From a virus (taxonomy: Duplodnaviria; Heunggongvirae; Uroviricota; Caudoviricetes): a stretch of 35,267 nt of DNA. Every line of letters starts with the position of its first letter. Position 1 is the stretch's first letter. The notes under the pieces are model-generated. The model was given only the letters and a program-made list of their open reading frames with translations. It ran no database searches and had not been told where the DNA came from. Made by a program: the position numbers and the translations under genes. Positions 13,996 to 31,451 of this stretch are shown in pieces. The stretch is from IMG/VR virus record IMGVR_UViG_2737471818_000009. One strand, given 5' to 3'.

Positions 13996-14337
13996 TCAGC
14001 GCACGCCGTCGTGCTCAAGGCTGAAATGATTGCCATCCGGGCGGTTTTTAAAACGACCGCCCCATGCGCCACCAAGGGATTCCCAGTACTCGCCCAGCTC
14101 GCGGTAGGCCTCTGTGCGGGTCTGATATTCACCGTTAATAAACAGATTAAAATCCACGGCCAGCCGCTGGCAGTGCAGGCTGTTGGCAATGCCGGATCCC
14201 TTTTGTGCGTTGAGTTTTGCCTGTTCTGGCGTGCGGTACGCCTCACCGAACGTCAGGCCATAACCGCGCTGATGGGCAAACTGGATGAGTTTTCCGATCA
14301 TGACGGTAAATTGTTGTTGCTTATCGGAGAGTTTCAT
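13996..14337 (-). CDS. Endolysin, peptidase M15-type (L-alanyl-D-glutamate peptidase-like)
   Basis: 113 aa; zinc-ligand-like motifs SLHCQRLAVD and GNHFSLEH; sits after the holin. Confidence 0.75.
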   Translation of the reverse strand: MKLSDKQQQFTVMIGKLIQFAHQRGYGLTFGEAYRTPEQAKLNAQKGSGIANSLHCQRLAVDFNLFINGEYQTRTEAYRELGEYWESLGGAWGGRFKNRPDGNHFSLEHDGVR

Positions 14338-24571: not shown

Positions 24572-24876
24572 TAATGGCATAAATTGATGGAGCGGGTCAG
24601 TGAATAAAGAGGCAATACATTCCATCCCTTAGAGCGCCAGCTGTCTGCAACATCTTTACTTCTTGTTATCGCCGGTATTCCAATAGGATTATTTGCGTGC
24701 ATCCATGCCACTGGCTCTGCTTCCAGTGATGCAAGTGCGATTTCCAGTGCGATTAACATATTGTGATCGTCTTCATCAAGACCGAACGGGATGTCTTCGC
24801 GCCACGATTTAAACTCTGTGATTTTACGTTGTAACCATTCTTTGGTAATGGTGGACATAGTTACTCCTGTTTTCAC
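24571..24876 (-). CDS. Hypothetical small protein (95-101 aa) coupled between parR and the Rrf2 gene
   Basis: Position 24874..24876 is GTG overlapping the parR stop; first ATG at 24856..24858; no recognisable motif. Confidence 0.4.
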   Translation of the reverse strand: MKTGVTMSTITKEWLQRKITEFKSWREDIPFGLDEDDHNMLIALEIALASLEAEPVAWMHANNPIGIPAITRSKDVADSWRSKGWNVLPLYSLTRSINLCH

Positions 24877-25187
24877 TTCGGGAAAAACGCCTGAATATTC
24901 TTTTTCACCTGCTGCATATGGGGGGCGCTGTCTGCTGCTGGTTGCGCCGGTTTTTCAGGCTGTACTGGTAGCGGTGGCATCCGTATTTCGTCTTCTGACC
25001 ATTCTGCCAGCGAATACGCCAACGCGGGGGTGCGTTTTATAAGAGCCAGTCCGGCCAGAAAAGCCGCGCGTTGTGCGCGGCTGCGTTCGGAGGCTGGCAG
25101 GCTGTCGAGGTAACTGCACGCCTCCCGTTCGCTCTTGACGACGGTGGGCTTCAGATAGAAACTTATCCGTCTGGTTGGTGTCGTCAT
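24873..25187 (-). CDS. parR: ParR-like centromere-binding protein (type II partition adaptor)
   Basis: 104 aa from ATG 25185..25187 (AGGAG RBS); RRISFYLKP...YLDSLPASERSRAQRAAFLAGLAL parallels plasmid R1 ParR (RRTIAFKLNP...TLDSIPQGERSRLNRAALTAGLAL, recalled); 5 nt after the parM stop. Confidence 0.7.
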   Translation of the reverse strand: MTTPTRRISFYLKPTVVKSEREACSYLDSLPASERSRAQRAAFLAGLALIKRTPALAYSLAEWSEDEIRMPPLPVQPEKPAQPAADSAPHMQQVKKNIQAFFPK

Positions 25188-25191
25188 TGAT

Positions 25192-26151
25192 TTACTCCTG
25201 GTCCATTGCGTACAGCCCATTAACCAGAGCAAACTGTGGCACCCCGTCCGCGATGAAAGTCGCATTAACTCCGCAGGCTTCGCAGATAGCGGGTGCCACA
25301 ATCTCCGCTCCTCCACCTACAACCATCACCCGCCCGTAACCCGAAAAACCCGCCAGCGCGCGGATCACGCGTTGTTTCAGTGTTTCTTCCTTTTCACGAA
25401 TAACTGCCATCAGGCTGGCGTAATGCGCGTCATTGTGGATGTGCTGGCGCAGCCAGGCTTCATCGTGGCGATGTTCGATAATGGTATTGGCGATGTGGTG
25501 ACTGGTGCGCATACCGTTGGTGGCCATCACCGACAGCACGGCATCGGCCATCAGAGAAACGCCTACGTGTGGATCGCAAAACACCTGGCTGATACCTGCC
25601 AGCTGCCCCTGAACCTTTGCCACATCCAGCGTGGTTCCGCCCAAATCCACAATCAGCAGGGATTCAAACGGACTCATGTCGGCCAGTGCTTTAAAGCCAG
25701 CCGGAATGGATTCAGGCATAACCCGCACGTTACGGATAGTGAATGCTTCGCCGTTCTGGTACTCCACCGGGCGCATAACGTTCGCTTTTTTGCGGTTGAT
25801 GTTGGCCATGTCCGGCTGTGCGTTTGTGTCGAAATACTCGCTCAGTGGCAGGGTGACAACCACATCCACCTCCTGTGGCGTGATGCCTGATTTGACCAGC
25901 GCGTGATGAATGGCAATGACATTCACATCGCTGTACTGGTATTGCGTGTCGGTCGTCTGGACAAAGCGATCGCTGACCGGATCAAAACCATAGCGCACAC
26001 CATCAAGCATGTAGTTCGCGGGCTGCGTGCCACCGAACGGCGCAGACCATTCCGACTTGAAGCTGTTCGGGCTGATGGCGTTGCGGCGTTCGCCGTTCTC
26101 AGTCCATGCCAGCTTGATGTTGGTGGAGCCGTCGTCGATACAAATTTTCAT
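25192..26151 (-). CDS. parM: ParM/StbA-like actin-fold partition ATPase
   Basis: 319 aa with IDDGSTNIKL, ISPNSFK, YSDVNVIAIHHAL, RKKANVMRPVE, MPESIPAG, DLGGTTLD and GGGAE motifs, collinear with plasmid R1 ParM. Confidence 0.85.
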   Translation of the reverse strand: MKICIDDGSTNIKLAWTENGERRNAISPNSFKSEWSAPFGGTQPANYMLDGVRYGFDPVSDRFVQTTDTQYQYSDVNVIAIHHALVKSGITPQEVDVVVTLPLSEYFDTNAQPDMANINRKKANVMRPVEYQNGEAFTIRNVRVMPESIPAGFKALADMSPFESLLIVDLGGTTLDVAKVQGQLAGISQVFCDPHVGVSLMADAVLSVMATNGMRTSHHIANTIIEHRHDEAWLRQHIHNDAHYASLMAVIREKEETLKQRVIRALAGFSGYGRVMVVGGGAEIVAPAICEACGVNATFIADGVPQFALVNGLYAMDQE

Positions 26152-29053: not shown

Positions 29054-29439
29054 GGCTGGTATCCCGTCACGCGCTGCCACTCCTGCGAGAAGATGGCGGA
29101 AAGGCGGTTAAATTCAGCGGTGTATTCACTCAGCGAGGCACACCCGCCAGCAGTGCGATGCGCCAGCATTGCCGCGAATACGGAGGCCGGGGAGTCGTAA
29201 TACGCCAGCAGTGATTCGCCGTGTGGTGTCAGGCAGTGCAACGCCAGCCCGTGTGGTGTGAAGTCCACGCGGTAGCAGTCGTCTACTGTGAAATAAAGGG
29301 TGTCCGCATTCTCCGGTTTTGTAGTGCGTGCTCTGTTGTCACGACCACGGATGTAAAGATCAAATAATCCCTGAAGAACGGGAGCCAGACGGGTGTCCTG
29401 TGTGCGCACCCATCTTGTGAAGTCATGAGCGTCAATCAT
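29050..29439 (-). CDS. Hypothetical early protein, 129 aa
   Basis: ATG 29437..29439; stop overlaps the A start; no recognisable motif. Confidence 0.4.
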   Translation of the reverse strand: MIDAHDFTRWVRTQDTRLAPVLQGLFDLYIRGRDNRARTTKPENADTLYFTVDDCYRVDFTPHGLALHCLTPHGESLLAYYDSPASVFAAMLAHRTAGGCASLSEYTAEFNRLSAIFSQEWQRVTGYQP

Positions 29440-29511
29440 GCTGCAATTCTCTTTACTACAGATGTGCGAAGGCCTCCCGCCGCAAGGTGCAGGAAAGGCC
29501 CGGAACAGGAA

Positions 29512-29742
29512 TTAATGGAGTTTGTTTTGCTGCTGGATGAGCTGCTGAAGCTCGCGCAGATCATCCGCCAGATAGCTGAAAACAGCGGATGAATAGAGGT
29601 TTGAAAGTTCGCAGCTACGCTCATGCAGCATATTGATGTGCATGATTTTAGCGACGCGGAATGCGCGGGAAAGTCTGCGGTTGATTTCAGTCTGGATGTG
29701 ACGACGCTCCGCGATAGCGCGGTGCTGTTTGCGGTTTGCCAT
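29512..29742 (-). CDS. Hypothetical early protein, 76 aa, basic
   Basis: ATG 29740..29742; first ORF downstream of a 370-bp structured noncoding region. Confidence 0.35.
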   Translation of the reverse strand: MANRKQHRAIAERRHIQTEINRRLSRAFRVAKIMHINMLHERSCELSNLYSSAVFSYLADDLRELQQLIQQQNKLH

Positions 29743-29921
29743 GGTGTGGCCTCGTGTATAGTAAGTTTTGAAAACTCACCATCCAGAGGTGGAAAACTCG
29801 GGGTGGTGAGACGTACAGGGTTTCCACAACCGGCTATACACGAACCCGGCCCGACCGAAGTCGGCCCCATACGCCCCACCATAATTCTGACGCGAAAAAG
29901 ACGTGGCGATACGGTACGCAC

Positions 29922-29942
29922 AAAAAAACCGCTGGCGCGGTT
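29922..29942 (-). terminator. Rho-independent terminator candidate in the early region
   Basis: plus-strand aaaaaaa then accgc tggc gcggt; on the minus strand the hairpin is followed by a run of T. Confidence 0.35.
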
Positions 29943-30109
29943 GTGCGCGTGTATAGTCAGCGGGGTGGAAATCCCGGCACCCGTTTTATGAGGTGCAGCG
30001 GAAATGTAACCTGACTGATTGCGGCATGGCAAGCGGTTTTTTTGTGAGAACGGCATACTAAAAAATCCTGATGCTGCTCCGGCCAGCGGTTTCCACTGGC
30101 CGGGTTTAA

Positions 30110-30940
30110 TTACTTCACCGGAACAAACGGAACAGCGGTATTACTGGTCATGTATTGCGGCAGCGTGCCGTTCCATTTGTTGATAGCTTCCAGCTCCATA
30201 ACGCCGGGGTTCTGGCGCAGAGCTTCACCGCGCAAACGAATGGCGTCGGCTTCAGCCTGGGCTTTTGTGCGAATGGCATCAGCCTGTCCGGCTGCTTCTG
30301 CGCGTAGCATGTTGGCTTCTGCTTCGCGCTGCTTGACTTCCTGTTCGCGTTGCAGAGTTTTCTGGTTTGCCGTGACTTTGGCATTAATGCTGTCGATAAC
30401 GGTTGGTGGGTATTCCGGTTTACCGACATAAGAGAGGCTCATTACCTGAATGCCGATAGGTGTCATTTCTGCCTGAATGTCTTTAAGTGCTGAATCCAGC
30501 AGTTCAGACTTGCCGCCGTCGATAAATTTATCGGTGGTCATTTTGCTGGCCAGTCGGTTGAGTGCGTCGGCGATCTTCTGGCGCAGGTCAGTGTCGGTAA
30601 TGTCATCCACGCCTTTGCGGTAGGTCTGAAACACTGTAGTAACTTTGGATGGATCAACCTTGTAGGCCACACCGATGTGATAGCCGATGGTTGTGCCGTC
30701 ACTCATCTGAAAGCTGAACGGCTCATCGTAGGTCTTCATTTGTTTGAAGGTTGGGAAGATGTAAACCTCTGTATTCCAGCCTGTCCAGTAGCGGCCAACG
30801 CCAACTACTTCGCCGACGCCTTTGTCGTCGCCCAGCTTGTTGACTTTGATGCCCACATTACCTGGCTCAACGCGATCGCAACCAACCAGCAGGATGGCGG
30901 CAAAAAGCGGGAGAATCTGAAAGAGTTTGAATTTCTTCAT
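30110..30940 (-). CDS. SPFH/band-7 (stomatin/prohibitin-like) lipoprotein
   Basis: 276 aa; signal peptide with lipobox LLVGC; SPFH-like core; C-terminal Ala/Glu/Gln-rich coiled-coil (QREQEVKQREAEANMLRAEAAGQADAIRTKAQAEADAIRLR). Confidence 0.75.
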   Translation of the reverse strand: MKKFKLFQILPLFAAILLVGCDRVEPGNVGIKVNKLGDDKGVGEVVGVGRYWTGWNTEVYIFPTFKQMKTYDEPFSFQMSDGTTIGYHIGVAYKVDPSKVTTVFQTYRKGVDDITDTDLRQKIADALNRLASKMTTDKFIDGGKSELLDSALKDIQAEMTPIGIQVMSLSYVGKPEYPPTVIDSINAKVTANQKTLQREQEVKQREAEANMLRAEAAGQADAIRTKAQAEADAIRLRGEALRQNPGVMELEAINKWNGTLPQYMTSNTAVPFVPVK

Positions 30941-31140
30941 TGTTTGATTTCCTTGATGTACTTACTGAAAAGGCGAACAACGCCTGCCGGGTACAGCATG
31001 GCAATGAAAATGCCCAGCAATACCAGGAAGGAGCTGTCTGATGAAATCATTCGGGGGAGTAGTCCTGCATACAGAATGAGAGAGACGAGGACGCATACCA
31101 GCGCCCACATGTATGCGCGAAACCAGGTCTTTTTGTTCAT
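30937..31140 (-). CDS. Small membrane protein (two TM segments) coupled to the SPFH gene
   Basis: 67 aa, two hydrophobic helices; its stop overlaps the SPFH start (ATGA). Confidence 0.5.
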   Translation of the reverse strand: MNKKTWFRAYMWALVCVLVSLILYAGLLPRMISSDSSFLVLLGIFIAMLYPAGVVRLFSKYIKEIKQ

Positions 31141-31151
31141 ATCGCGGTCCT

Positions 31152-31451
31152 TTACTGGTTAAGGAAAAAATCGAAAACGTTGTCGATGCGTTGCAGCAGC
31201 TCCTGCTGCATTGCTTCCGGCGTTTCTGATTCACCTGGTGACTCCAGCGTCGCGCAAAAATCCTTGATTTCATGATGGAGCGTCAGACGAATGGCAGGAG
31301 CCGTGGTTCTGGCGTGCTCCAGCTCATCCAACAGTGCCAGCACAGCAGACGGCGAGAGCATTGCGCGAAACGCCAGTAATTTTTGATGCGTTGCCATTCG
31401 TTGCAGGGCAAATGCCAGTTCGCGTAGCTTCTGGTGGTTGATGGTGCTCAT
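31152..31451 (-). CDS. Hypothetical early protein, 99 aa
   Basis: ATG 31449..31451; helical, no recognisable motif. Confidence 0.35.
   Translation of the reverse strand: MSTINHQKLRELAFALQRMATHQKLLAFRAMLSPSAVLALLDELEHARTTAPAIRLTLHHEIKDFCATLESPGESETPEAMQQELLQRIDNVFDFFLNQ

Follow-up and report, generated by a model that had tools for sequence, protein, structure and literature searches.

It has recently emerged that membrane proteins of the SPFH superfamily, among them HflK/C, the prohibitins, the stomatins, the flotillins and the erlins, assemble into closed membrane cages, and in the solved assemblies the cage wall is built by a long helix that follows the SPFH domain. The prohibitin and erlin cages face the compartment opposite their partner AAA protease or endoplasmic-reticulum-associated degradation (ERAD) machinery, and in Escherichia coli HflK/C, with FtsH as its client, is to our knowledge the only characterised SPFH cage that faces the periplasm. 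The locus considered here is a pair of overlapping genes, one for an SPFH lipoprotein and one for a small membrane protein with two transmembrane (TM) segments, at positions 30110-31140 of a 35,267-nucleotide stretch of viral DNA (Caudoviricetes; IMG/VR record IMGVR_UViG_2737471818_000009), which is referred to below in its full length as the window. The reading preferred here is that the two products form a two-component SPFH cage, with the subunits in a 1:1 ratio, on the periplasmic face of the inner membrane; it is limited to assembly and topology, and a probability of roughly 0.6 is attached to it.

Both genes lie on the minus strand, as do all features of the window given below without a strand, apart from the cassette as a whole, the T-rich strings at its ends and the endolysin gene. 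The gene for the small inner-membrane protein (30937-31140, 67 amino acids, ATG start, PHROG 1130) precedes that for the SPFH/Band-7 lipoprotein (30110-30940, 276 amino acids, ATG start, PHROG 200), and they meet in the junction AAACAATGAAGAAA, where the TGA stop of the first overlaps the ATG of the second in an ATGA motif (30937-30940) that couples translation of the pair. An AAGGA Shine-Dalgarno sequence stands 8-9 nucleotides 5' of each of the two starts, that of the small gene at 31148-31152, and the same 4-nucleotide overlap is found in phages phiP27, Fraca, Pylas and phi1026b and in two metagenomic loci (L087 and L090). Both are real genes and neither is a chance open reading frame (ORF). 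The SPFH gene product matches PHROG 200 'lipoprotein' with E=4.9e-112. The small ORF can be accepted because its product matches PHROG 1130 'membrane protein' (E=1.3e-22) and because its changes concentrate at third codon positions and are synonymous in excess: the 24 DNA variants compared, all from close relatives, differ at 36 sites, of which 20 are at codon position 3, and 50% of codon changes are synonymous, against 23.5% expected and 25% and 11% in the other two frames, a pattern that points to purifying selection in its own frame.

The longer protein carries an SPFH domain. Pfam Band_7/SPFH (PF01145) matches residues 23-209 (30314-30874) with E=7.6e-31 and 107.9 bits against a gathering cutoff of 23.6, covering profile positions 2-176 of 176. 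Residues 1-21 (MKKFKLFQILPLFAAILLVGC, 30878-30940) form a lipoprotein signal peptide, recognised from the sequence and from the conservation of Cys21, with a basic n-region, a hydrophobic h-region and a lipobox of the type [LVI][ASTVI][GAS]C, here LVGC at 30878-30889, and Cys21-Asp22-Arg23 would be the first residues of the mature protein. An alignment of 50 relatives at 31-61% identity shows Cys21 without exception. An exhaustive HMMER search returned 2,891 cluster representatives with E values up to 1e-3, 221 of them at 1e-30 or below; over the best 150 of these representatives, at 50% identity, which also served for the fusion counts given below, a simple pattern recognises a lipobox in 109. 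An N-terminal TM anchor of its own, such as HflK and HflC possess, was looked for in the lipoprotein and not found, the N-terminus being a cleavable lipoprotein signal.

An AlphaFold2 single-chain model of the lipoprotein, built on the 50-sequence alignment, has a mean predicted local distance difference test (pLDDT) score of 91.3 and a predicted template-modelling (pTM) score of 0.72. It orders the chain as a signal helix, an alpha/beta SPFH core (residues 21-176), a helix of 65 residues (179-243), a short helix (245-255) and a flexible C-terminus, and in the model the SPFH domain starts right at the cysteine predicted to be lipidated, with no flexible tether between them. The Ala/Glu-rich helix 179-243 and the short helix after it (together 30176-30406) correspond to the wall helix of SPFH assemblies, judging by the model and by full-length alignment to HflK/C, prohibitin and erlin. 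Beyond them lies a C-terminal motif, K-W-N-G-x-L-P (residues 255-261, 30158-30178), which two alignments delimit; among relatives it reads K-W-[ND]-G-x-L-P, with Trp256 and Gly258 invariant and Pro261 nearly so. When the model was compared with the PDB using Foldseek, the top matches were human prohibitin PHB1/2, E. coli HflK/C (in structures both with FtsH and without it), erlin1/2 and stomatin, at E values of 1e-13 to 1e-11 and over 250-300 aligned columns that include the wall helix, and flotillin, QmcA-YbbJ and the major vault protein ranked lower; the probability was 1.00 for the top matches and also for flotillin and the major vault protein. All of these solved structures form rings or cages. 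Searches with sequence profiles and against the sequences in the PDB put HflC and HflK first, weakly, and the NCBIfam equivalog cutoffs are missed for both HflC (TIGR01932, 24.8 bits against 134.4) and HflK (TIGR01933, 22.7 against 159.4).

The small protein has hydrophobic stretches at about residues 9-30 and 37-57 and, as hydropathy and charge profiles indicate, basic residues at both ends, for which reason it is predicted to be a hairpin with its N- and C-termini in the cytoplasm (N-in/C-in). The two stretches are joined by a conserved periplasmic turn, LLPRMISSDSS, in which a 22-sequence family alignment shows Pro29 and Ser33 to be invariant (a Pro-x3-Ser turn), with Gly43 nearly so. PHROG 1130, which the PHROG categories place under 'moron, auxiliary metabolic gene and host takeover', is matched by all 22 family sequences, among them the N-terminal extensions of the fused proteins described below. 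NfeD, for which an earlier note on this DNA had suggested a profile search, matches neither the 67-residue protein nor any of the 22 partner sequences, no Pfam family matches them consistently, and 67 residues leave no room for the oligonucleotide/oligosaccharide-binding (OB) fold of NfeD; the partner is not NfeD-like. The description of the pair in the earlier note is borne out: the two ORFs occur at these coordinates on the minus strand with ATGA coupling, and the lipobox-bearing signal, the SPFH-like core, the coiled-coil tail (the helices 179-243 and 245-255), the two TM segments and the place of the pair in an early operon were all recovered. A weak match of the small protein to RseC_MucC (E=0.032) was set aside as a composition-level match of TM helices.

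On sequence evidence the small protein is the cognate partner of the SPFH family, and the evidence that carries this is fusion and adjacency. About 19 of the 150 best representatives are 320-390 amino acids long and have an N-terminal extension, which can be aligned with the separate small proteins found in the window and in RCS47, phiP27 and Fraca. The fused order is first TM helix, turn, second TM helix, variable linker, lipobox helix and SPFH domain, and the turn motif common to fusions and separate partners is [LV]-P-x-[LM]-[IV]-S-[AS]-x-[DS]-[ST]. Inspection of the contig that carries one of the fused ORFs showed it to be uninterrupted, and the model of a natural fusion (P0144) has three helices followed by the SPFH domain, with a pLDDT of 87.7. 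In all five unfused metagenomic loci (37-54% identity) a gene of 63-72 codons with the turn motif lies directly upstream, overlapping by 4 nucleotides or a few nucleotides away, and in P88, phiP27, RCS47 and Fraca the small gene is likewise adjacent or close upstream. Recurrent fusion together with kept adjacency is classical evidence for a physical, stoichiometric partnership, and fusions and translational coupling lead us to infer that the two proteins associate 1:1. Searches with the small protein and its profile return only 20-30 short relatives, a number which says little on how exclusive the partnership is.

In most of the phages sampled the small gene precedes the SPFH gene, either directly or at a short distance. 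The partner of the N4-like Klebsiella phage Pylas is annotated '2 TMDs N in C in', clear hidden Markov model (HMM) matches identify it in the Salmonella phage-plasmid SSU5, the jumbo phage Munch, Myxococcus phage Mx1 and the Prevotella megaphage Lak-B9, and it is found upstream with one gene between in Cronobacter phage GAP31 (Vequintavirinae) and with two genes between in Pseudomonas phage Ab22 (Bruynoghevirus). Erwinia phage M7 and Burkholderia phage phi1026b give a weak partner match to what is still a two-TM protein with the proline, and the phiCbK-like Caulobacter phage CcrSwift has another multi-TM protein upstream of its SPFH gene. That protein, gp243 (locus L100, 828-1178, 116 amino acids), is undetected by the partner HMM and may be a replaced or highly diverged partner. 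In some public records the partner gene is present and unannotated, as in the RefSeq/GenBank records of phiP27 (L002, 3291-3479, minus strand) and RCS47 (L003, 3309-3545, minus strand), and a Stx2a phage record (L005) has an unannotated gap of about 370 bp at the equivalent position.

The genetic setting bears on when such a module would be made. The window is a P88-like (Xuanwuvirus) prophage: the region is 95.6% DNA-identical to Escherichia phage P88 (P2-like, Peduoviridae, Xuanwuvirus), which carries the same pair as gp11 and gp12, with a lipoprotein 99.6% identical in protein sequence. An integrase and a helix-turn-helix (HTH) repressor are encoded on the plus strand of the window, and the minus strand carries in order Cox, DUF4761, DUF4754, a MarR-type winged-HTH protein, an Ead/Ea22-like protein, the pair and the rolling-circle replication protein GPA. 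Only 11 nucleotides separate the stop of the Ead/Ea22-like gene from the start of the small gene, which leaves no room for a separate promoter between them, and for this reason the simplest reading of the gene order is that the pair is co-transcribed from the early promoter.

The two proteins can be placed together in a single architecture. An N-in/C-in hairpin followed by a third helix running from inside to outside would put the SPFH domain of the fused proteins in the periplasm, and the lipoprotein signal directs the separate protein to the same side, so that fused and split forms agree. Asp at position +2 is an inner-membrane retention signal in E. coli, by which a lipoprotein avoids the Lol system, and an Arg at +3 may modulate or weaken it. 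The enterobacterial-phage members examined have Asp at +2 (the window, phiP27, RCS47, Fraca, Pylas, SSU5 and Munch; GAP31 has Glu), and this residue, along with the fusions, would keep the assembly in the inner membrane. With no tether, the domain would sit flat on the membrane that holds its lipid. The lipoprotein would then supply the base of the ring, the wall and the cap, as in HflK/C and prohibitin, and the small protein would supply the transmembrane 'fence' that in HflK/C and the prohibitins is built by their own N-terminal helices. If the pair is co-transcribed with the early operon, the module of this P2-like phage would be made early in lytic growth and not in the lysogen.

Several observations weigh against this cage. 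Position +2 is unconserved outside the enterobacterial phages, where among the best 150 representatives T, S and G are common, and the Arg at +3 may weaken retention by Asp, so that some members, once cleaved, could reach the outer membrane. In three of the sampled phages (M7, phi1026b and CcrSwift) the partner is matched weakly or goes undetected, and one or two genes split the pair in GAP31, Ab22 and M7. Similarity to HflK/C is at the level of the superfamily, with 17-19% identity, and nothing ties the pair specifically to FtsH. Expression timing is read from the gene order, and scans for promoters and terminators around the cassette in the window, RCS47 and phiP27 gave results at or below shuffle expectation. 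Oligomerisation into a cage is predicted from the modelled fold and its wall helix, and the complex between the two proteins and its localisation are predictions too.

It is clear from comparison with related prophages that the pair is an optional insertion of 1.1 kb in the early operon. When the window is aligned with an 'empty' P88-like prophage (L097), the boundaries of this mobile cassette fall at about 30047 and 31140 (30047-31140, approximately 1.1 kb), so that it comprises the small gene, the SPFH gene and a GC-rich hairpin, CCGGCCAG-N9-CTGGCCGG (30079-30103), which lies directly past the SPFH stop codon, has no U-tract and is missing from the empty site; the hairpin may mark or stabilise the 3' end of the RNA. 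The cassette is present in the window and in P88 and missing from most related prophages. At least 80% of a tested 2.35-kb region around the pair is found in 117 complete E. coli genomes; in most of the other matching E. coli genomes the flanks are joined, with about 1.19 kb instead of 2.28 kb, and in a sister phage, Citrobacter Shae_phiSM, an unrelated 'DNA binding protein' gene occupies the same slot. By DNA match the SPFH gene occurs in 531 of 5,426 complete E. coli genomes (about 10%), and 195 of its 612 places are on plasmids. Its mature part is 87-93% DNA-identical in lambdoid Stx2 phages, in phiP27, where it lies by int/xis, and in P1-like phage-plasmids such as RCS47, with the signal-peptide codons and the small gene there swapped for other variants; Hendrixvirinae phage Fraca is more distant, at 79.1%. 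Mosaic breakpoints inside the cassette are visible when window positions 30143-30880 are compared with the Stx2, phiP27 and P1-like records, and the signal-peptide codons and small gene occur in at least two divergent variants, of the LLPRMISSDSS type and the LVPFLISMKDT type. Similar T-rich strings lie at the cassette ends (30034-30046 and 31124-31137), with GCGGTTTTTTTGTG standing on the left boundary while CAGGTCTTTTTGTT lies a little within the right one, which may be microhomology used in insertion or deletion, or a coincidence.

The family reaches far beyond E. coli prophages. In a tblastn search it was found in 379 of 50,697 phage genomes (about 0.75%), with carriers among the phages of Pseudomonas, Klebsiella, Erwinia, Escherichia, Burkholderia, Caulobacter, Salmonella, Prevotella and Stenotrophomonas, and the pair or the family occurs in Schitoviridae (N4-like), Vequintavirinae, Bruynoghevirus, Ounavirinae, phiCbK-like phages, jumbo phages and Lak megaphages. 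These groups are regarded as strictly lytic, for most of them by our own classification. In phages so regarded the pair lies among early or nucleotide-metabolism genes, such as those for RNA polymerase subunit, dUTPase, DNA polymerase A, NADAR and exonuclease. Such a patchy, optional spread fits a competitive or host-takeover function, and with so many carriers in groups of this kind the module is unlikely to serve the control of lysogeny, or lysogenic conversion, as its general role. One may go further and suppose that phages with Gram-negative hosts, from the P2-, lambda-, P1- and N4-like phages of E. coli to Myxococcus Mx1 and the Prevotella Lak megaphages, share a dedicated two-subunit, periplasm-facing nanocage, lipid-anchored, assembled early and with a split or fused non-NfeD partner, which would be a new architectural class of SPFH assembly and the first viral one with a defined role, for instance in hijacking FtsH-type quality control or in sealing the membrane against rival phages or membrane-targeting defences; we put this wider proposal at a little under an even chance.

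The presence of the gene as such is already public, as RefSeq 'SPFH domain-containing protein' and PHROG 200, and the family also carries misleading product names in public records, including 'serine protease', 'transposase', 'peptidyl-tRNA hydrolase' and 'high frequency of lysogenization C protein'. Authors who have noted the gene speculate on HflK/C-like control of lysogeny (PMC8540360, PMC10269572) or on adsorption or DNA entry (PMC13239085). The same authors remark that obligately lytic phages carry the gene as well (PMC8540360, PMC10269572), several Pseudomonas phages among them (PMC8540360), and the gene has been discussed as a possible hint of temperate behaviour in therapeutic phages, with the caution that it is not proof (PMC8540360), a caution that the distribution described above supports. 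In the literature searched in full text, phage SPFH proteins are met in annotation remarks and in work on the Pasteurella protein PM0222, taken up below, with no functional study of them, and the literature searched holds no description of the two-TM partner, the pairing or the fusions. The partnership of PHROG 1130 with PHROG 200, with its Pro/Ser turn and its fusions, thus appears to be undescribed before.

What a periplasmic cage would do for the phage is the weakest step of the proposal. It would fence a patch of inner membrane and so control access to some inner-membrane client, and the precedent of HflK/C makes FtsH-type quality control the first candidate for that client. Action of this HflK/C-like kind on FtsH or on other envelope quality control is no more than a tentative first choice. 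Protection of the membrane is a further candidate. The second choice, which we regard as doubtful, is that the pair blocks the entry of competing phage DNA: an early cage would occupy or sequester inner-membrane sites or proteins that incoming DNA needs, and would protect the infected cell, or also the lysogen if the pair had its own promoter, in the manner of T4 Imm and Sp, P22 SieA or HK97 gp15. Superinfection exclusion of this kind would suit the envelope location, the early position, the presence in lytic as well as temperate carriers, the host-takeover category in which PHROG files the partner and the patchy, clean presence or absence among close relatives, which extends to Bruynoghevirus (PMC8540360), and in the P1-like RCS47 the pair faces a divergent neighbour and must have its own promoter. 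Yet no SPFH protein is known to exclude phages, and in the prophage studied here the pair appears to be tied to the repressed early promoter, which would leave the lysogen unprotected. Known defence systems offer no match either: a comparison of the pair and five neighbours with PADLOC-DB 2.0 gave no match for the SPFH protein and one at chance level (14 bits, E=0.008) for the small protein.

That absence of a PADLOC match counts equally against a pore-forming or abortive-infection pair, in which the small protein would be a holin- or viroporin-like effector that the SPFH lipoprotein checks or triggers. Its size and N-in/C-in two-TM topology do resemble those of class II holins and pinholins, and SPFH proteins such as stomatin regulate channels (e.g., entry 9zd2), but some 16 kb separate the pair from the endolysin gene (13996-14337), a toxin and its regulator are seldom fused stably 1:1, and the conserved residues sit in the periplasmic turn and not along a polar, pore-lining face, so that this idea is judged improbable.

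Still less credit can be given to a mimic of HflK/C that tunes the degradation of CII/CIII-type regulators by FtsH and thereby sets the frequency of lysogenisation, a role of the kind that the earlier note had raised and which has been voiced elsewhere (PMC8540360, PMC10269572). Among proteins of solved structure HflK/C come first in sequence searches, and their periplasmic orientation is that predicted here, but the CII/CIII logic is specific to lambda, and this is a P2-like phage, which has a C/Cox switch and among whose early genes checked no CII/CIII-type gene was noticed; the NCBIfam HflK and HflC cutoffs are missed by more than 100 bits, and many carriers belong to groups regarded as strictly lytic, as was noted for Pseudomonas phages (PMC8540360). 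This role is very improbable, and the same low standing is given to the pair as a source of lysogenic conversion, in which the lipoprotein would lie on the outer membrane or in vesicles and act on the animal host, serum or phage receptors, in the manner of Bor, Cor, Llp or Pasteurella PM0222. The last, a 'HflK/C-like' protein of a prophage island and a possible relative of the present family, is reported to occur in outer-membrane vesicles, to be a TLR1/2 agonist and to act as a virulence factor (PMC9872710), and S, T or G stands at +2 in many family members. Against a surface role speak the Asp that the enterobacterial members examined have at +2, the many relatives that are fused to inner-membrane helices, the lack of a tether between lipid anchor and domain, and the abundance of the family in phages regarded as lytic, which are unable to convert their hosts. 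A two-component spanin of the Rz/Rz1 type, which consists of an inner-membrane periplasmic coiled coil and a small outer-membrane lipoprotein encoded in the lysis cassette, was rejected, since here the large coiled-coil subunit is the lipoprotein and the endolysin gene is distant.

The surroundings of the cassette have features of their own. Downstream of the SPFH gene lie an isrK Hfq-binding RNA (29922-29996; Rfam 63.5 bits, cutoff 50) and, in tandem with it, a C4 antisense RNA (29799-29886; 77.3 bits, cutoff 45), and past the two RNAs a 76-amino-acid ORF (29512-29742, PHROG 3688) that is called 'derepression protein' in P88. This isrK/C4/derepression module resembles the P1 immI (c4-ant) or the Gifsy-1 isrK-type antirepressor control, here in a P2-like phage; a promoter-like site (30032-30003) and a terminator (29942-29927) are found near isrK/C4. 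ORFs of 206 amino acids (29436-30056) and 122 amino acids (29623-29991, plus strand) overlie the two RNAs and are probably not genes, and the latter is partly annotated in P88 as gp13 'hypothetical protein'. Directly downstream of the replication gene this integrase-bearing P2-like prophage carries a plasmid-type partition pair (24873-26151), consisting of a ParM actin-like ATPase (StbA_N E=1.8e-82, ParM C-terminal domain E=1.6e-67) and a ParR-like Plasmid_stab_B protein, and the P88 partition genes are annotated alike.

Beyond the current annotation, what is added here is the partnership with its fusions, the two-component, lipid-anchored architecture that it suggests, and a presence/absence polymorphism that makes the architecture testable. 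The family is compact (276 and 67 amino acids, sometimes in a single chain), abundant, and present or absent in near-identical prophages, all of which make it unusually tractable. If the periplasm-facing cage is real, it would provide a minimal model of an SPFH assembly and a new type of partner besides NfeD, and also a route to what phages gain by fencing the inner membrane, be it protease control, exclusion of rivals or protection from defences. A practical point is that the family is often mis-annotated in public records.

Set beside known systems, the pair shows no difference in kind at the sequence level from PHROG 200, PHROG 1130 and P88 gp12 and gp11, of which its proteins are direct members. 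T5 Llp, phi80 and N15 Cor and lambda Bor are likewise phage-encoded accessory lipoprotein genes, but their products are small outer-membrane lipoproteins with neither an SPFH domain nor a membrane partner, and no homology to them was detected. QmcA faces the cytoplasm and has a TM anchor of its own. As in the SPFH-NfeD operons to which it belongs (E. coli QmcA-YbbJ, PDB 8z5g), the phage SPFH gene is co-transcribed with a gene for a small membrane protein, the partner comes first in gene order and it is likely to be a stoichiometric subunit of the cage; unlike NfeD, the phage partner lacks the OB-fold domain, and in the fold search QmcA ranked no higher than 34th. Eukaryotic prohibitin PHB1/2 and erlin1/2 are the best overall structural matches (E about 1e-13, TM-score 0.5-0.6), and they differ in being anchored by their own TM helices, in being heteromeric and in sharing just 14-19% identity. 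With E. coli HflK/HflC the phage lipoprotein shares an SPFH fold followed by a long wall helix and a predicted periplasmic orientation at the inner membrane, but a single SPFH paralogue takes the place of the K/C heterodimer, the C-terminal region is shorter, and in place of its own N-terminal helix the protein would be anchored by a lipid and by a separate two-TM protein.

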